IMG/VR virus record: IMGVR_UViG_2718217709_000003
DNA from: a virus
Lineage: Duplodnaviria; Heunggongvirae; Uroviricota; Caudoviricetes
Length of the DNA: 53,807 nucleotides
Strand: one strand, 5' to 3'
Positions 726-13,197 of this stretch are shown piece after piece. The translations under genes were made by a program, and so were the position numbers. The notes below the pieces were generated by a model. It worked only from the letters and a program-made list of their open reading frames with translations, searched no databases and was not told the DNA's origin. The number at the start of each line of letters is the position of its first letter. The stretch's first letter is position 1.

Positions 726-3028
<2,303 letters not shown>

Positions 3029-3227
3029 CTTAATTCTCCAGGCAAAAAGAAACCGCCATATAGCGGCTCTATCAGATATGTACAGGCCTCATCGAGTGTG
3101 AGGCTGTGTGATTTCTTTATTTCCACTCTTAATGTTTGTCAGTGAATGGTTTCTCTATCTCCATTAATGCCTTATTCATCTCATTTCGTAACTCTATAGC
3201 CATCCTGACGGCTTCAACCTGTGCAGG

Positions 3228-4286
3228 ATGTCGGTTATGGGCGATTTAGCCATGAGGGCTAACGTCGCTCTTTCTCAGGGACCGGAAGCCTACAGTAAAT
3301 TCATTACTGACAACAAGGACAGGTTAAATCGCGTTGGTGCTAATGCTGACTGGATGATTCAGACAGGTATCCAGAATCCAGAGCAGCTATCACACATGCT
3401 GACTACTATGTCTCTCGGTGCGCTTGGACCAGAAAAGGCGTTTGCTGTTCAGGATAAGATGGCTGGTCGTGAAATTGACCGAGGCAGGCTGGCAGAGACA
3501 ATCCGCAGCAATCAGGCTGGTGAAGCACTTCAGGCGAGAGGGCAAAACCTTTCCTATCAGTCAGCAATGACTGGGCACAATATCGCAGCACAACGCTTGG
3601 CTCTGGATCAGCAAGAGTTCGGGTTTAAGATGCAGCAAGCGCAGGAAAAGGCTCAGCAGTTGATTAGTGAAGCACCTAAGCTGTCAGTAAACATGGAAAA
3701 AGGCATCGAGACGGCTGTAAACAATGCCACAGCATCATCAAACTCAGCCAATTCTATGAGTGCGCTTGCTCAACAGTTCAGAGCAGAAAAACCAACGACA
3801 GGTTTGTTCGGTAACGCACAGAACATGTTCGCAAAACTTACCGGAAGCGATACGACATTGCGTGATTTGCGCATCCGCCAAAATGCCCTTGTTAACAGTC
3901 AGGTTCTTAAATTCCTACCTCCCGGCCCAGCAACGGATAAAGACGTTGAGATCGTTCGGCAGGGTGCGCCAACTGACATGGATAACCCTGAGACGGTCGC
4001 AAGATGGCTTGATGCAATGGCAAACCTTGAGCGACGAAACGCGCAGTTTAATGAGTTTAAAGCTGAGTGGATGAGCGCGAATGGCAATCCTGGACAATCG
4101 CGTAATGGCGGTCAGATATTGGGGTTGGATGTTAAAAAAGGTGAATCATTGGGGAGTGCCGTTAAGCGGTATATGTCATTGAATACTGACGCAGCGCCAG
4201 CACAAGATTCGACACCTTCAGGAGAACCACGGAATCAGGTTGGATCATATACCTCAAAATCAGGCATTCAATTTACGGTGGAATGA
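3228..4286 (+). CDS. Hypothetical protein (352 aa); possibly a P22 gp20-like ejection protein
   Basis: Long ORF rich in Ala/Gln/Asn, translationally coupled (ATGA overlap) to the next ORF; lies upstream of the immI region and tailspike where P22-like phages encode ejection proteins. Product is inferred from position only. Confidence 0.4.
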
Positions 4287-6124
4287 TGAAAGTAACTGCA
4301 AACGGTAAGACATTTACCTTCCCTGATGGTACGAGCACGGAAGATATTGGAGCCGCCATTGATGATTATTTTGCTGGTCAGGTTGTTCAGCAACAAACAG
4401 TTAATCAGGCCAATAATGCACCAGTACGTGAAGAACCATCATTGATGCAACAAGCTGGCGATTGGCTCACTGGTGGTCAAAGTGCAGGGCAAATTGCAGA
4501 ACAGGCTGGTCGTGGTCTGGTAAACATACCATTTGACGTATTGCAGGGTGGCGCAAGTCTGATTAATGCAATCAGTCAGGGGCTTGGTGGGCCAAAAGTT
4601 TTGGATGATGTTTATCGTCCAGTAGACAAACCGACAGACCCATACGCACAAGCCGGTGAAACAATTGGTGGGTATTTAGTTCCAGGAGTTGGAACGGCAG
4701 GAAGCATGGCTATTGGATCGCTGGCAGAGGCCGCAAATCAGAAAGGCGATTTCGCACAAAATGCAGCTAAAAATGCCGGAGTTAACCTTGCCGCTCAGGG
4801 TGTTCTTTCCGCAGCAGCAAAGGGAATAGGGCGTGGAATAACGGCTATAAAAGGTGATATTGCGCCAGAAGTGGCGAAGAAAATTGCCACATCAGAATCG
4901 ATGGGCGTGACACCAATGACATCTGATGTTATCCCGCCGAAAAATGCTTTCACTCGCGGCCTTACTCAGGATGCCGAGGGGGCTTTGCTCGGGACGGGCT
5001 CAAAGCGAGCAGAGCAATATGCAACGCGGAGTAAGCTGGTAAGCAATTATTTTGACCGTTTTGGTGAGTACAACCCTGATGATGTGGTGAAATCTCTGAC
5101 CACCACGTTAAGGGGGCGGAAGGATGCCGCTGGCGCTGTTATCAATGACGTCACCAATAAAATGGGTAATGCCGCAGTTGATACCACAAATACCATGAAT
5201 GCTCTGAATACAGCGATCGCAAGACAGGAACGGCTTGGGACGTCTGCCAATCAAAGCCTGCTTACATCCTTGCGTAACCTACGTGAAGAATTAGCAAACC
5301 CTGCAACTGATTTGGATGTTACGTTTGATCTCTTGCGTCAGCACAGAACAGCATTTAGATCTAATGTTCAGGGAGATGCTATGGTCTTCCCCAACCAGGC
5401 AAAAGCAGCTACCAATATGGTAGAGAATGCAATGTCAAAAGACCTTCGTAACGCAGTTGCTAAAAACCTCGGTGCATCAGACGCAGCAAAATACCTTAAA
5501 GCAAATTCCGATTATGCAAACGTTTATAATAAGGTGCTTAATAAAAACATTGCCAACAAGCTCAACAAGGCAAGCAGTGAAGCCAGTCCTGAACTTATAA
5601 ATACCGTTGTATTAAGCAGAAAACCATCTGACGTGAAACGAATCTGGAGCGCACTGGATGATAAGGGGAAAGATGCTATGCGTGCAGCTTACGTCAGCAA
5701 AATAGCGGAAAAGACCGGGGACTCTCCAGCCAAGTTCATCACTGAAGTTAATAAGCTGAAATCTCAGTCAGGCGGTGAAATTTACAACACTATTTTTTCT
5801 GGAAAGCACATGAAAGAGCTTGATGCTCTTCATGAAGTTCTACAGCAAACAGCAAGGTCAGACACCGCAAATGTAGTAACTCAGACGGGGCAATCGCAAG
5901 CCAACAGGATAAGGACGATTGGCGCAACTGCGACCCTTGGCGTATCAATGGGGCTTGAGGCTGGTTTTGGTGCAATGATGCGCTTGTATGAGTCCAAAGC
6001 AGCAAGGAATATGCTTCTTCGTTTGGCAAACACCAAAGCAGGAACACCAGCCTATGAAAGAGCGATAAATAACGCTGCGAATGCCATCAGACCGCTGTTT
6101 GCTACTGAGGCAACACAGCAGTAA
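4283..6124 (+). CDS. Hypothetical protein (613 aa); possibly a P22 gp16-like ejection protein
   Basis: Long Ala/Gly-rich ORF, about the size of P22 gp16, in the matching position before the immI region; assignment is positional. Confidence 0.4.
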
Positions 6125-6148
6125 CGTATGGGAAATTGGATTCAATCG

Positions 6149-6538
6149 CTAACATTTTCTTTTTACTTTTCCAACAAAAGCTTTGGTTGAATCCATATTT
6201 CCATAACCGGAAATGGTTTTTGACATTAAAACTGTTCCAGTAGGATGTATTACCCATGAGTCGATAACGCGTTGAGTTTCGCCATTCGCGCCGATTCCTA
6301 TGATGGAGTTTTTAGACAATGCTTTGTAAGCCATGCCGCCCGCATCTGTCCCAGAATATGTGATGCTGGCATCTTCACCGTTTGTCTTAATGATGAATGT
6401 TCCACTAAAACCATCTTCTTCCGGATGGAAATTATTTCGTTCTGAATAGCTTATTCCGCGCATATCTCCAACGACCCAGCACTCTGCTGTAGCCCCAAAA
6501 GATATGAATAAGAACATAGCAGTAAGAAATTGCTTCAC
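6149..6538 (-). CDS. Secreted protein of unknown function (129 aa, N-terminal signal peptide)
   Basis: N-terminus MKQFLTAMFLFISFGATA looks like a Sec signal peptide; sits where P22-like phages carry sieA. Confidence 0.5.
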   Translation of the reverse strand: MKQFLTAMFLFISFGATAECWVVGDMRGISYSERNNFHPEEDGFSGTFIIKTNGEDASITYSGTDAGGMAYKALSKNSIIGIGANGETQRVIDSWVIHPTGTVLMSKTISGYGNMDSTKAFVGKVKRKC

Positions 6539-6655
6539 GCCAACCTCCTTAGTTTTGAGCAGGATACCATGAAAAAAGTAAACATCTTTTGCCTACTTCA
6601 CATTTGAATGGTTTGTCATTAGGATGTTTCCGGTTTTTTAAATATGGAAATTGAT

Positions 6656-7075
6656 ATGAAGAGGATTATTGGCGTCGTTGCTGGCGCTATATTGTTATCT
6701 GGGTGCGCAACTATTGTTGGTGACGAAACGCAGCTTGTGCAAGTGAACAGCAATCCTTCCGGTGCGAGCTTTAAGGTAAAAGACGAATCAGGCGTGATTG
6801 TTGCGCAAGGTAAGACCCCGCAAGGAGTAACTCTTGCCAAGTCAGATGGTAGTTATTTTGGCAAAAAGAGCTACCAGATCACTATGGAAAAGGATGGGTA
6901 CGAACCAGTTACCCTGCCAATCAAAGCCAATGCTAATGGCTGGTATATTGGTGGAAACCTTGTGTTTGGTGGGTTAATTGGTTGGCTTGCTGTAGATCCT
7001 TTTAATGGTGGGATGTATACCTTGAAGCCAAAAGAGGCAAACGCATCTCTTATACCATCAACAAAGCAAGACTAA
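6656..7075 (+). CDS. Lipoprotein of unknown function (about 139 aa)
   Basis: Lipobox LLSGC after a hydrophobic N-terminus (MKRIIGVVAGAILLSGC); followed by a strong intrinsic terminator. Confidence 0.55.
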   Translation: MKRIIGVVAGAILLSGCATIVGDETQLVQVNSNPSGASFKVKDESGVIVAQGKTPQGVTLAKSDGSYFGKKSYQITMEKDGYEPVTLPIKANANGWYIGGNLVFGGLIGWLAVDPFNGGMYTLKPKEANASLIPSTKQD

Positions 7076-7083
7076 TAAATAGG

Positions 7084-7108
7084 ACCCACCTTCAGGTGGG
7101 TTTTTTGT
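7084..7108 (+). terminator. Rho-independent terminator after the lipoprotein gene
   Basis: GC stem cccacc-ttcag-gtgggt followed by a T run (ttttttg). Confidence 0.6.
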
Positions 7109-7343
7109 ACAAATCCTTCAGCGTATCAAATACCATCTTCTTAACAAGCTCTGACTGCTCATCAGCGAGTCGTTCTGCATCGTCGCGATATCCAGTCACA
7201 GGCGATGGTTTTGATAGAGCATCTTGGACGATTTGTAACAACTCGGAGTTCATTGATCTCCCATTCGCCTCCGCCCTGAATTTTAATTTCTCCCTTACTT
7301 CCATAGGCATACGGAAGTTAAAGTGCGGATCATCTCTAGCCAT
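7092..7343 (-). CDS. mnt: Mnt repressor (ribbon-helix-helix), P22 immI region
   Basis: 83-aa protein MARDDPHFNFRMPMEVREKLKFRAEANGRSMNSELLQIVQDAL... matches P22 Mnt as I recall it. Confidence 0.85.
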   Translation of the reverse strand: MARDDPHFNFRMPMEVREKLKFRAEANGRSMNSELLQIVQDALSKPSPVTGYRDDAERLADEQSELVKKMVFDTLKDLYKKPT

Positions 7344-7370
7344 GCCATCACTCCAAGTTAGTGTATTGAC

Positions 7371-7391
7371 ATGATAGAAGCACTCTACTAT
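7371..7391. promoter_or_regulatory. Arc operator overlapping the Pant promoter
   Basis: ATGATAGAAGCACTCTACTAT matches the P22 arc operator; a TTGACA -35 hexamer sits immediately upstream (7366-7371). Confidence 0.7.
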
Positions 7392-7400
7392 ATTCTCAAT

Positions 7401-7417
7401 AGGTCCACGGTGGACCT
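7401..7417. promoter_or_regulatory. Mnt operator (17-bp palindrome)
   Basis: AGGTCCACGGTGGACCT is a perfect palindrome matching the P22 Omnt sequence. Confidence 0.7.
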
Positions 7418-7433
7418 ATATTGTGAGGTGAAT

Positions 7434-7595
7434 ATGAAAGGAATGAGCAAGATGCCGCAGTTCAATTTGCGGTGGCCTAAAGAAGTATTGGATTTGGTCC
7501 GCAAGGTGGCGGAAGAGAATGGTCGGTCTGTTAACTCTGAGATTTATCAGAGAGTAATGGAAAGCTTTAAGAAGGAAGGGCGCATTGGCGCGTAA
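7434..7595 (+). CDS. arc: Arc repressor (53 aa)
   Basis: [53 protein letters not shown]; the ORF track extends it upstream, but the ATG at 7434 gives the canonical 53 aa. Confidence 0.85.
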
Positions 7596-7663
7596 AGTTG
7601 AAGCCCCAACTGCGGGAACAGTCAGGGCTTCGGTTGTCAGTAAATCCGTGGAGAAAAACCAAC

Positions 7664-8566
7664 ATGAATAGTATAGCAATTTTAGAAGCAGTGAACACCT
7701 CTTATGTACCATTCAACGGTCAGCAAATTATCACCGCCATGGCTGCCGGAGTTGCATATGTTGCGATGAAGCCAATCGTTGAAAACCTTGGAATGAGCTG
7801 GTCAACGCAGCAAACAAAACTCATGAAGCAGATTAGCAAATTCAACTGTGTTCATATGAACATGGTTGCCGCTGATGGGAAGCTTCGTAAGCTACTCTGC
7901 CTTCCTTTGAAGAAGTTAAATGGATGGCTGTTCAGCATCAACCCTGAGAAAGTTCGTGCTGACATCCGTGATAAACTGATTCAGTACCAGGAAGAATGCT
8001 TTACTGTACTGCATGACTACTGGACAAAGGGAAAGGCAGAAAATGCACGTAAGAAAACATCTGTTGATGACAGGACTCCGCTTCGTGATGCTGTAAATAT
8101 GCTAGTCAGCAAAAAGCATCTAATGTACCCAGAAGCTTATGCAATGATTCATCAGCGTTTCAATGTGGAAAGTATTGAAGAGCTTGATGCATCTCAGATA
8201 CCGCAAGCCGTAGAGTACATCCACAGGGTAGTGCTTGAAGGTGAATTTATCGGCAAACAAGAGAAGAAAACCAACGAGCTTTCTGCAAAAGAAGCAAACA
8301 GCCTTGTATGGTTATGGGATTATGCCAACCGCTCACAGGCATTATTCCGCGAACTGTATCTGGCGCTAAAACAAATTCAATCGAACTATTCCGGCAGATG
8401 CTACGACTACGGTCATGAATTCTCGTATGTTATCGGAATGGCGAGAGACGTTTTAATAAACCACACACGAGATGTTGATATTAATGAGCCAGACGGACCA
8501 ACGAATCTTTCCGCATGGATGAGACTTAAGAATAAAGAATTGCCTCCTTCAGTACATAACTACTGA
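7664..8566 (+). CDS. ant: Antirepressor Ant (300 aa)
   Basis: Directly downstream of arc as in P22 immI; start taken at MNSIAIL, which gives 300 aa. Confidence 0.7.
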
Positions 8567-8666: not shown

Positions 8667-11168
8667 ATGACAGACATTACAGCCAATGTTGTAGTAAGCA
8701 TGCCTTCGCAACTCTTCACTATGGCGCGTTCTTTTAAAGCCGTAGCCAATGGCAAAATTTATATCGGTAAAATTGACACTGACCCGGTAAATCCTGAAAA
8801 CCAGATTCAGGTCTATGTGGAGAACGAAGACGGCTCTCACGTTCCTGTTGCACAGCCAATCGTCATCAATGCCGCAGGGTATCCAGTATATAACGGACAG
8901 ATTGCCAAATTCGTTACCGTGCAAGGCCATTCTATGGCTGTTTATGATGCGTATGGTGCTCAGCAGTTCTATTTTCCTAATGTGCTGAAGTATGATCCAG
9001 ATCAACTACGTGCACAACTTTTAAGCCCATTGGATGGACTTGGAGATAACCTTGTTAACGTAAAGCAACCAGGCATGTCGTCAGACAGAAGAACTGTTCA
9101 TGATAAAATGATTGAGTCAATCAGCATAGCTGATTACATTGTAAATGACAGCAGCATAACAAATGCAATTATAAATGCCTTAAGTTCAAACGTAGGAACT
9201 ATAATTATTCCTCCTGGTGAGTTTGTTGCAAACCCGTCAATAAAAGATGTTTCTGGATTATTTAAGTTGTTTTCAAGATGTGAGTTAAGGGGGCGGCTTA
9301 CAGTTAATATTCCTCCTGGCTATTCATATTTTACAGAAAAGACCATTGTTAGTTGTATAGGCGCCCATAATTTGACAATTAAGGGTGTCAAATATGAAAC
9401 ATCAATAACATCACTTGTATCAGTTGCTGGTTCGAAGAAAAATTATTCTGTAACGATATCGCTTTCTGATGCTTCAAATGTTTCTGTTGGTGATTATATC
9501 ATAATTAGACATGACGTTTCAGGAACCGGTGCATATCACATGCACTGTGGAGGATGGAAAGTACTGTCAGTTTCTGGAGCAAATGTTACAGTAAATAATA
9601 CTTGCCATCTTGATAACTTCCCTGAATCGACATTAACTGGAGGATCGGTATCTATAATTAAGTCGGTTCTCAAATATACTGGTTGTGATGGTTTTGCCGT
9701 GTCAGGTGGTGATTGTATTAATACAATTGATGGTGTAGCCATTGTTGGTGATTACTCGGTAGCAGAATCTATAGGCACAATTGGAGCGCATGGGTTCACT
9801 ATTGCCACGCCTGATATAACAATTGATGAACCAGATCCATCAAATAAAGTATTTGACATGTCTGGTAATTTAGCAATTGGTCCTGATATTGTTATATCAG
9901 GGTGGGGGGAGCAGGGATTTGTTGCTTCTGGTCGAGCAGGTGTTGTATGTAATTTTATAGCTTCATCATCTAATAGAAAGCGCGGTATTTACGCGGAAGG
10001 AGCTCATATCAGAGGAAAATTCATGGTTTGCTCTGGTAATGGTGAAGATGGGATTATATCTGATATCGGTGGTGCGATTCAGGCCAACGGATCTGTATGC
10101 TCAGGAAATGGGTTGAATGGGTTCTGGTCATTTAATAACAGTGAGTTAAGCGCGCCAAATGGTGTTGCGTGTGGTAACTCAACAAATGGTATTGAGGCCA
10201 GGGCGTTATCAAAAGTTAATTTCGAAAACGGTAGATCATATCTAAATGCCAGAAATGGAGTATCAGCGTCATATGGTGGAAACATAGCTTTCACTGGTGG
10301 AACATCTAGCGATAATGTAATAGATGGTATCTATTCTGTTTACAACGCAACAGTAGCAGCTAATAATGCAAGTTCGAAAAACAACAGAAGGTATGGTGTT
10401 AACTGCACAGATTCTATGATAGTTATGACTGGTAGCGGAGATGTGTCAGGAAATGTTGCTGCAAACTATATAGATAACGGTGGCGGGGTAATTATAGATA
10501 CGGAAGGAGAGGTGATTCCTGTTAATGCACATCCGCAGAGAAATCTCATGCTGAGGAATGCAACAACTCTTTCTGGTTGTGATATTTCACCTTCATCAAT
10601 TGGTGATATTACCATTTCGTTAAAAAGCTCTCCTTCTGCAGATTTAAGTGATCGTTATGTTTTTAAAGCCGATGGAACTCAGCATCCATCTGGTGATGCA
10701 ACCCAAAATTTGGGGCGCGCGAGCAACAGATATAATGTTGGATATTTTGCCGGAGGTACGCAATCAAGTTCTGATGCAAGACTCAAGACAGCAGTTAGAG
10801 GTATGACCGCTGATGAAATAAATGCCGCAATGAAGATTGCAGAAGTTCTAGGTTTTTGGTCTTGGATTGATGATGAATCTAAAAGACTGCATGCTGGAAC
10901 GACTGTTCAGAAAGTTATTGCAATACTTGAGGAGAATAATCTTGATTGGAAAAAATACGGATTTATTGGTTATGATGCTTGGGATGATGAATTTGAATAT
11001 GTTACTGAAATTGATGAATTTGGAAACTTAGTTAAGAATGGAGAGATGAAGTTGATTAGAGCGGCTGGTGATCTTTGGCAGTTTAGAGATCAGGAGCTTG
11101 ATAGATTTATAATGAGAGGTCTTTTCGAAAGAATTAGAAAGCTTGAAGAATCGTTATACCAAAGATAG
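8667..11168 (+). CDS. Tailspike (833 aa): P22-type head-binding N-terminus, beta-helix receptor domain, C-terminal intramolecular chaperone
   Basis: First ~110 aa ([59 protein letters not shown]...[15 protein letters not shown]) match the P22 gp9 N-terminus; central SGNG/GxNG repeats typical of a parallel beta-helix; C-terminus ...[11 protein letters not shown]...GFWSWIDDE... resembles the peptidase S74 autochaperone. Confidence 0.8.
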
Positions 11169-11282: not shown

Positions 11283-11351
11283 TCACTCCACCTTTTCATC
11301 AATCCAGTCCGCCCACCATTGCATCATTTCTCTGCGCTTATCGTGGCAGAT
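11283..11351 (-). pseudogene. 3'-terminal fragment of a P4-family integrase gene
   Basis: Last ~22 codons ...SICHDKRREMMQWWADWIDEKVE* resemble the conserved C-terminal tail of P4-type integrases; upstream codons are not integrase-like. Confidence 0.45.
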
Positions 11352-11931
11352 AGATGCCTCACTATCACACGGTGATGGTTCATTACTGGTTTGCATAATG
11401 GATAGAGAACTGCGGATAAAAGATATCCCAAAACCCCAAAATCTCATCTTTAGGGGTTGCAGAAAGGGAGGCGTGAACAAATACCTGCGCATGAAAACGG
11501 AACTAGTCCAGATGTGATGTTTGTGGTGATCACATACATCATTAACGATGCTCGTTATGGTGAGTTTGATGACTACCCGCTGAAGTAAAAATTGTGTTGT
11601 GTACCAAATTGCGTACCAAACTAAAATCACAAATCATGAAGCCCTTGTTCATGGCGGTTCTCAGTGGTGTTGCGCGTAATCGTGAAACAAAAAGGTAGAT
11701 TGTTGCTTACCGTCATTCATCATTAGGTTAAATCCGTTATTTCTGCTGTCTGCCAGAGTATCAAATATCACCGTGCTAATCAGCTTTAGCGCGACAATTT
11801 GGCAGCGAGTGACAACAGATCATGTCAGATAAAAATGAGATAGTAGTCACATTTTCTTGCACTTTATTCCAGCCAGTTCATAAGTATTTCCGTAAAAAGA
11901 ACAGCTATTTGAAACACCTGAGGGTTTGCTG

Positions 11932-11957
11932 TTGAAACGCCGTCTTATTATTGCTGC
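11932..11957 (+). pseudogene. dacD: dacD 5' fragment (first ~9 codons, TTG start), cut by IS2
   Basis: Encodes (M)KRRLIIAA, then IS2 begins; the rest of the signal peptide (SLFVFNLSSGFA) resumes at 13289. Confidence 0.7.
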
Positions 11958-11968
11958 TGGATTTGCCC

Positions 11969-12874
11969 CTATATTTCCAGACATCTGTTATCACTTAACC
12001 CATTACAAGCCCGCTGCCGCAGATATTCCCGTGGCGAGCGATAACCCAGCGCACTATGCGGATGCCATTCGTTATAATGCTCGAACGCCTCTGCAAGGTT
12101 CTTTGCTGCCGTTAACCCGTCTGGTTTGGGCATGATACTGATGTAGTCACGCTTTATCGTTTTCACGAAGCTCTCTGCTATTCCGTTACTCTCCGGACTC
12201 CGCACCGCCGTGTTCTTCGGTTCAAGTCCCAACATCCGGGCGAACTGGCGTGTTTCATTAGCCCGGTAGCATGAACCATTATCCGTCAGCCACTCCACTG
12301 GAGACGACGGAAGATCGTTGCCGAAGCGGCGTTCCACCGCTCCCAGCATGACGTCCTGTACTGTTTCACTGTTGAAGCCGCCGGTAGTGACCGCCCAGTG
12401 CAGTGCCTCACGATCACAGCAGTCCAGCGCGAACGTGACACGCAGTCTCTCTCCGTTATCACAGCAGAACTCGAACCCGTCAGAGCACCATCGCTGATTG
12501 CTTTCTTTCACGGCCACTCTGCCTGTATGTGCCCGTTTCGATGGCGGTACAGCAGGTTTTCGCTCAAGCAACAGCGCATTCTGGCGCATGATCCGGTAAA
12601 CACGTTTGGCATTGATCGCAGGCATACCATCAAGTTCTGCCTGTCTGCGAAGCAGCGCCCATACCCGACGATAACCATACGTGGGCAGCTCTCCGATAAC
12701 ATGGTGTATACGGAGAAGCACATCCGTATCATCAGTGTGACGACTGCGGCGGCCATCCATCCAGTCATCGGTTCGTCTGAGAATGACGTGCAACTGCGCA
12801 CGCGACACCCGGAGACAACGGCTGACTAAGCTTACTCCCCATCCCCGGGCAATAAGGGCGCGTGCGCTATCCAC
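11969..12874 (-). CDS. insD: IS2 transposase InsD (OrfB, 301 aa)
   Basis: IS3-family DDE transposase ORF within the IS2 boundaries. Confidence 0.85.
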
Positions 12875-13197
12875 TTTTTTGCCCGTCCATATTCAACGGC
12901 TTCTTTGAGGAGTTCATTTTCCATCGTTTTCTTGCCGAGCAGGCGCTGGAGTTCTTTAATCTGCTTCATGGCGGCAGCAAGTTCAGAGGCAGGAACAACC
13001 TGTTCTCCGGCGGCGACAGCAGTAAGACTTCCTTCCTGGTATTGCTTACACCAGAGAAATAACTGGCTGGCTGCTACACCATGTTGCCGGGCAACGAGGG
13101 AGACCGTCATCCCCGGTTCAAAGCTCTGCTGAACAATTGCGATCTTTTCCTGTGTGGTACGCCGTCTGCGTTTCTCCGGCCCTAAGACATCAATCAT
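12832..13197 (-). CDS. insC: IS2 InsC (OrfA, 121 aa)
   Basis: [40 protein letters not shown]... HTH protein; overlaps insD in the usual frameshift arrangement. Confidence 0.85.

Follow-up and report, generated by a model that had tools for sequence, protein, structure and literature searches.

Upstream of an immI region in the stretch of DNA analysed here (53,807 nucleotides, hereafter the window) lie two large overlapping open reading frames, which raise the question of what proteins they encode and whether those proteins still belong to a working phage. An earlier note, made from the sequence without database searches, had described them as a coupled pair of low-complexity, Ala/Gln/Gly-rich proteins of 352 and 613 aa and of unrecognised family, had guessed from their position that they were ejection proteins, and had allowed that they could be a different cargo. 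On the evidence set out below we are highly confident that the pair, with its first frame truncated by a deletion, represents genes 20 and 16 of a temperate P22-like phage, now decayed, whose integration site was sbcB. The pair as such is already known and nothing in its identification is new, as RefSeq PGAP annotates both frames accordingly.

Family assignment of the two reading frames

The six-frame ORF list places both frames on the + strand, with ORF1 (352 aa) at 3228-4286 and ORF2 (613 aa) at 4283-6124, and the two overlap in an ATGA within the boundary sequence gtggaATGATGaaa. The stop codon of ORF1 (TGA, 4284-4286) overlaps two candidate ATG codons for ORF2, at 4283 and 4286; PGAP takes the latter as the start, giving a protein of 612 aa, while translation from 4283 gives 613 aa. 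This stop-start overlap is the native junction of genes 20 and 16. Both proteins show a modest enrichment in Ala, Gln, Gly and Asn (ORF1: A 12.2%, Q 8.2%, G 8.0%, N 7.4%; ORF2: A 14.5%, G 8.6%, N 7.3%), and the composition count found no Cys in either one. To this extent the compositional description holds, but the term low-complexity is an overstatement: 12-residue windows with an entropy of 2.2 bits or less number 8 of 341 in ORF1 and 6 of 602 in ORF2, and the whole-protein entropies (4.02 bits for ORF1, 3.98 bits for ORF2) are near the 4.03-4.19 bits of ordinary neighbour proteins.

ORF2 aligns end to end with P22 gp16 (609 aa, an ejection or 'pilot' protein) by BLASTP, with 458 of 613 residues identical (75%, 927 bits), and residues 1-613 cover positions 1-663 of the 668 in the PHROG 770 profile, 'DNA transfer protein' (E = 6.6e-278). 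The 25% of residues that differ from the P22 protein are accompanied by a small indel in the N-terminal Gln-rich linker. Identity to Sf6 gp13 is 32%, and gp16 of the intact P22-like prophage of E. coli 23CRST032 (NZ_AP045802.1) is identical at 610 of 612 positions. A tblastn search of the phage collection returned relatives of ORF2 in 174 records, mainly P22-like phages of Salmonella and Escherichia, APSE and Vibrio phages. The gene lies directly after gene 20, which it overlaps, with immI and the tailspike beyond, and this position is the same in P22, Sf6 and the intact E. coli prophage. By all the sequence and synteny comparisons, ORF2 is a full-length, intact DNA ejection gene of the P22-gp16 family that has been orphaned: it is similar in length to P22 gene 16 and stands in the same slot, but it does so in a dead prophage that lacks the partner genes. 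PGAP names the product 'P22-gp16 family phage DNA ejection protein'. Kyte-Doolittle profiles of ORF2 (19-residue windows) peak at 1.1-1.2 over residues 78-96, 126-149 and 545-565, and these three mildly hydrophobic, Gly/Ala-rich segments would be in keeping with a protein that stays soluble inside the capsid and moves into the membrane once ejected; they may also explain part of the Ala/Gly richness of ORF2.

ORF1 matches Pfam PF16928 (Inj_translocase, 'DNA/protein translocase of phage P22 injectosome') with 182.6 bits (gathering cut-off 29.7), and PHROG 917 with E = 4.1e-135, the alignments covering only positions 112-217 of 218 and 123-509 of 509 in the respective profiles. The 23CRST032 prophage has an intact gene-20 protein of 471 aa, whose residues 123-471 are identical to residues 4-352 of ORF1 at 349 of 349 positions. 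Relative to P22 gp20 (471 aa), residues 4-123 of ORF1 are 81% identical to residues 123-249, and the C-terminus is complete, with the last 14 residues 93% identical, while the C-terminal half is of a different mosaic allele, as is common in gene 20; the divergence from P22 in the middle and C-terminal parts would fit the intragenic mosaicism documented for this gene. Sf6 gp12 (431 aa), which forms a tube in vitro, aligns over its residues 121-265 at 44% identity. The alignments against P22 gp20/gp16 and Sf6 gp12/gp13 that had been proposed as a check thus return homology to ejection proteins for both frames, and the positional guess is upheld, with ORF2 a gp16 orthologue and ORF1 a homologue of gp20. 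ORF1 is nevertheless incomplete, as it lacks the N-terminal ~120 residues of a family whose members span 431-471 aa; where P22 gp20 has its N-terminal 122 residues, ORF1 has 3 foreign codons. Judged by these alignments, ORF1 corresponds to the 3' three quarters of gene 20 (codons 123-471 of 471) and is a pseudogene fragment, not a functional member of the family. RefSeq/PGAP likewise records it as a pseudogene, 'phage DNA ejection protein', incomplete and missing its N-terminus. At the opposite end of the protein, the C-terminus of P22 gp20 is essential, as nonsense mutations that remove the final 33 or 66 aa abolish its function (PMC10461980).

Several searches came back empty. No Pfam model matches ORF2, the NCBIfam HMM scan gave zero matches for ORF1, ORF2 and the intact gene-20 protein, and a sequence search of the PDB with gp16 and the intact gp20 homologue found no match at E ≤ 0.01. 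Since the NCBIfam scan was empty, the 'P22-gp16 family' name given by PGAP evidently rests on other evidence, and the empty PDB and NCBIfam results only reflect the coverage of those libraries. Taken by themselves, the missing ORF2 model, the NCBIfam result for both frames and the want of a solved structure by sequence would suit a novel virion cargo of unrecognised family, unrelated to ejection. That reading is almost certainly wrong, as it is refuted by the alignment of ORF2 to gp16 (75% to the P22 protein), by the 100% identity between ORF1 and the last 349 residues of an intact gene-20 protein and by the PHROG matches (E = 1e-135 and 1e-278); conserved synteny with P22, Sf6 and the intact E. 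coli prophage also speaks against it. Neither the unrecognised family nor the different cargo of the earlier note survives these comparisons, PF16928 and PHROG 917 accounting for ORF1 and PHROG 770 for ORF2.

The deletion joint in gene 20

The N-terminal truncation of ORF1 maps to a sharp joint at 3236/3237. In searches of phage and E. coli DNA, homology to gene 20 starts abruptly at 3236, and the stretch homologous to int/alpA of phage Sf101 stops at 3237. When the three sequences are aligned, the window agrees with Sf101 as far as ...GTCGGTTA and with the intact gene 20 from TGGGCGATT on (or Sf101 through ...GGATGTCGGTTA and gene 20 from TGGGCGATTTAGCC), and all that the two parents share at the joint is the dinucleotide TA, a 2-bp microhomology. 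The first three codons of ORF1 (ATG 3228, Ser, Val) derive from Sf101-like non-coding DNA upstream of alpA (3029-3237, matching Sf101 up to the joint), and they stand in frame with the fourth codon, which is the native Met123 of gene 20 (3237). ORF1 is therefore short because the deletion took codons 1-122 of gene 20, and its frame is still open because an in-frame ATG sits three codons upstream in the foreign DNA. The earlier observation that ORF1 is shorter than P22 gp20 was correct as to length, the cause being the loss of these codons and not a shorter variant of the protein. For annotation in general the case counsels caution, in that a long ATG-started frame can be an artefact of fusion by deletion, and a protein shorter than its reference is a clue to this.

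Among 5,426 complete E. coli genomes, 7 carry precisely this junction. These carriers, with strains E1433, E1535 and L1_E925 among them, are all 100% identical over a 300-bp junction probe, and six of the seven are identical at every base of a 4,001-bp query. Its presence in seven independent complete assemblies means that it is not an assembly artefact; the junction is genuine, if restricted to a narrow lineage.

Within the window, alpA is followed directly by the gene 20 remnant with nothing but non-coding DNA between. In Sf101 the counterpart of the joint falls between alpA and the early-left genes, and the deletion therefore ran from just past xis/alpA to codon 122 of gene 20. We propose that a P22-like (Lederbergvirus-type) phage used an Sf101-type integrase to integrate at sbcB and then began to decay, and that illegitimate recombination at the 2-bp TA fused codon 123 of gene 20 to the non-coding DNA upstream of alpA/xis. 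If the phage was laid out like Sf101, this one event would have taken the whole early region, the late promoter and its activator, the lysis genes and every virion gene up to gene 7 inclusive, together with codons 1-122 of gene 20, leaving ORF1 as a pseudogene fragment, open by chance, and ORF2 as an orphan gene 16. The size of the deletion would be ~30 kb, a figure that reflects the layout of Sf101 and not that of the true ancestor.

A gutted prophage between sbcB and dacD

The sequences flanking the pair are those of a P22-like prophage from which most genes are gone. The left arm of the remnant is an Sf101-type tyrosine integrase gene, and the window begins inside it; PGAP records the gene as incomplete and beside sbcB. 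Its 5' part occupies 1-725 on the + strand (98.8% identical to Sf101 int, L004 2281-3005, with a match to Pfam Phage_integrase). Homology to Sf101 breaks at 725 and resumes at 2680, the interval being filled by a copy of IS100 (726-2679, +; IS21 family, 1954 bp) which carries istA (812-1834) and istB (1831-2613), so named by PGAP, and which is bordered by a 5-bp target duplication, each flank carrying Sf101 bases 3001-3005. The 3' end of the integrase gene follows at 2680-2856 (+; 98.6% to Sf101, within an ORF at 2629-2856), and an alpA-type excisionase/regulator gene lies on the opposite strand at 2837-3028 (phrog_66, 1.9e-8, with a weak match to Pfam AlpA), corresponding to the AlpA family protein of Sf101. 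The order and strands of int (+) and alpA (-) are those of Sf101, and the integrase, alpA and the 209 bp upstream of alpA are together ~98.6% identical between Sf101 and the remnant, which also share the chromosomal site: Sf101-type phages integrate at sbcB (PMC4159516). Sf101 itself differs in being a complete 38.7-kb phage whose ejection genes are of another allele, with similarity in gp16 (70%) restricted to the N-terminal part.

To the right of the joint stand the gene 20 remnant (3237-4286, +) and the intact gene 16 (4283-6124, +). P22 SieA gave no tblastn match in the window, and the interval between gene 16 and gene 9 holds two unrelated small ORFs. At the place of sieA in P22 there is a small secreted-protein ORF on the - strand (6149-6538, 129 aa, or 122 aa in PGAP; phrog_2651, 2.9e-61), found also in the intact 23CRST032 prophage. 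Between gene 16 and mnt there is a small lipoprotein ORF on the + strand (6644-7075, 143 aa, with an LSGC lipobox; phrog_6823, 6.8e-86), with a weak PEGA match below the Pfam cut-off. The immI region (7092-8566) follows in the order seen in P22, with mnt at 7092-7343 on the - strand (Pfam Arc plus Repressor_Mnt), arc within 7371-7595 (+; Pfam Arc) and ant within 7598-8566 (+; Pfam P22_AR_N/P22_AR_C), which confirms that the pair lies upstream of immI. A tailspike gene encoding 833 aa (8667-11168, +; Head_binding, 1.4e-66, and a C-terminal Peptidase_S74 domain; annotated by PGAP) forms the right-hand end of the phage genes of the remnant.

The rest of the virion module is missing: tblastn found no match in the window to gp7, portal, coat, gp4, gp10, gp26 or gp14. 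The remnant thus falls short of a functional P22-like prophage, which comprises a full virion module, scaffold included, together with early and lysis regions, and it can give rise to no virion. The earlier note had overlooked this gutted setting, without gene 7, portal, coat or the other virion genes. In E1433, an example genome that is identical to the window over this stretch, the order is sbcB, integrase (with IS100 istA/istB), the alpA-like regulator, the gene 20 pseudogene, gp16, two small genes, two Arc-family genes, Ant, tailspike, a humD fragment, IS2 and dacD. As far as gene content and order can tell, the locus is a decayed, non-viable P22-like prophage at sbcB in E. coli, lying between sbcB and dacD.

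A different history would do without any internal deletion, the int/alpA segment being a separate island within gene 20 of a P22-like prophage whose remainder lies elsewhere. The int/alpA module is indeed mobile, since it is also found in phages that are not P22-like (Stx-converting phages and mEp234), but we consider this history extremely unlikely. In the carriers sbcB directly abuts int on its left, which leaves no room for the missing half of the prophage and led us to reject an insertion into gene 20; int/alpA is placed and oriented as the left arm of an Sf101-type P22-like prophage at sbcB should be; and the joint lies in the non-coding DNA upstream of alpA and is not an att site.

The remnant and its undeleted relatives are readily compared. 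The intact 23CRST032 prophage carries the same allele of genes 20 and 16, differing from the remnant at 6 of 2,889 nt (4 synonymous and 2 non-synonymous changes), and shares with it the two small ORFs and the mnt, arc and ant genes that follow. It differs in having IntS at a tRNA-Arg gene and another tailspike, where the remnant has the Sf101-type int at sbcB. Phages N7 and vB_SemP_Emek carry this allele too, N7 being 98.6% identical to the remnant over the gene 20 part and Emek 89% identical. All three of these relatives have a full gene 20 and all the virion genes, which the remnant lacks.

Expression, age and the case for a retained function

What the intact proteins do is known from work on P22 and its relatives. 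The P22 virion packs ~12 copies of gp7, ~12 of gp16 and ~30 of gp20, which are ejected and build a trans-periplasmic conduit for the DNA (PMC8402733). In the live phage, gp7, gp20 and gp16 leave the capsid ahead of the DNA, with gp20 forming the periplasmic tube and gp16 working at the inner membrane (PMC8402733, PMC10461980, PMC8954989). The purified gp20-type protein of Sf6 assembles into a 15-nm-long tube, the conduit is absent from P22 20- mutants, and gp16 binds membranes and promotes the entry of DNA into liposomes (PMC10461980). A review (PMC8954989) treats gp7, gp20 and gp16 as the counterparts of T7 gp14, gp15 and gp16, whose ejectosome, comprising an outer-membrane protein, a periplasmic tunnel and an inner-membrane protein, appears to do the same job with the same gene order. 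The P22-type proteins are much smaller than those of T7 and lack the transglycosylase domain of T7 gp16 (PMC8954989), and the likeness between the two systems would be only one of analogy or of very remote homology.

In the remnant neither frame is likely to give a useful product, because the late promoter is gone and so are the partners gp7, portal and capsid. A consensus scan, which is crude and could miss weak or read-through transcription, found no promoter-like site on the + strand in 2800-3228, and the promoter/terminator scan of 2800-6700 returned 5 promoter-like sites against 5.9 ± 2.4 in shuffled sequence. The fusion has brought an AGGA (3225-3228) to a point 8 nt ahead of the Met123 codon of gene 20 at 3237, and a read-through transcript could yield a truncated gp20 by way of this motif and codon; nothing points to such a product. 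Most likely, to judge from these features of the DNA, ORF1 and ORF2 are an unexpressed relic.

The open frames nevertheless invite the idea that the remnant has been domesticated, the orphan gp16, with or without the truncated gp20, blocking the conduit of incoming P22-like phages in a dominant-negative manner alongside the two envelope proteins. The conduit is a known weak point, since SieA exclusion has its genetic targets in gp16 and the C-terminal region of gp20, with escape mutations falling in the C-terminal part of each protein (PMC10461980). The position of sieA moreover encodes a secreted protein and a lipoprotein, and both frames are open, with the AGGA 8 nt before Met123. Set against these points are the lack of a promoter-like site upstream; the distance of just 6 of 2,889 nt from an intact prophage, which explains the open frames without selection; the occurrence of the junction in only 7 of 5,426 genomes, near-identical to one another over this stretch, with no sign of spread or long retention; and the integrase split by IS100 and the IS2 at the other end, which are typical of ongoing decay. 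On balance we regard domestication as very unlikely. Its most specific form, in which both the orphan gp16 and the truncated gp20 are expressed and poison the conduit of superinfecting P22-like phages, the Shine-Dalgarno-like AGGA before Met123 being fortuitous, is a shade less probable again; if true, it would make a dominant-negative exclusion device out of a fragment of a decayed prophage.

For the decayed pair that we favour, the intact state of both frames follows from the youth of the remnant, as the few differences from the 23CRST032 prophage leave no need for selection to have kept them open. The locus therewith offers a clean and datable example of prophage decay, made up of one microhomology deletion and the insertions of IS100 and IS2.

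Both ends of the remnant

The excision of the remnant, a decayed P22-like prophage at sbcB, is disabled by an insertion sequence in its integrase gene. A complete copy of IS100 (IS21 family, 1,954 bp, istA/istB) occupies positions 726-2679 within this gene, which is of the type found in Sf101, a complete P22-like phage integrating at the same site, and the element is flanked by a 5-bp target duplication. At the other end, the interval between the tailspike gene and dacD (~11350-13100) holds a frameshifted fragment of humD, which encodes a translesion polymerase subunit, together with a copy of IS2, as seen in the genome of E. coli E1433, identical over this stretch; the IS2 ORF lies at 11969-12874 in the ORF list of the window. 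The prophage's right end has therefore been eroded as well.

From gene 16 to the tailspike

The interval between gene 16 and mnt, which in P22 holds sieA, contains two small ORFs for envelope-targeted proteins. The product of the first (6149-6538, minus strand; phrog_2651) is 129 aa long and has an N-terminus like a signal peptide; that of the second (6644-7075, plus strand; phrog_6823) is a lipoprotein of 143 aa, with an LSGC lipobox and a weak PEGA match. Neither of the two resembles P22 SieA, and an intact E. coli prophage carries both as well; they may be morons or genes for exclusion.

For arc and ant the mechanical ORF calls (7371-7595, 74 aa, and 7598-8566, 322 aa from a TTG start, respectively) are longer than the PGAP calls of the RefSeq annotation (53 and 300 aa). 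The shorter starts are probably the true ones, since in the long arc ORF the Pfam Arc domain begins only at residue 25.

The 833-aa tailspike (8667-11168) has the head-binding domain of P22 and, at its C-terminus, the intramolecular-chaperone domain Peptidase_S74. In its receptor-binding part it is unlike the 633-aa tailspike of the otherwise near-identical, intact prophage of E. coli 23CRST032.

A probable Mu-like prophage downstream of yeeA/tmaR

The 32.9-kb block at 17537-50403 has a GC content of ~0.56-0.59 and is missing from the chromosome of E. coli L1_E925, which is 100% identical in other respects; the two joints have 6 bp in common. Its encoded proteins include a Mu-type portal (PF06074) as well as tail sheath, baseplate J, tape-measure and tail-fibre proteins, and the block has the look of a transposable, Mu-like prophage that inserted into the CP4-44 region, on the downstream side of yeeA/tmaR.
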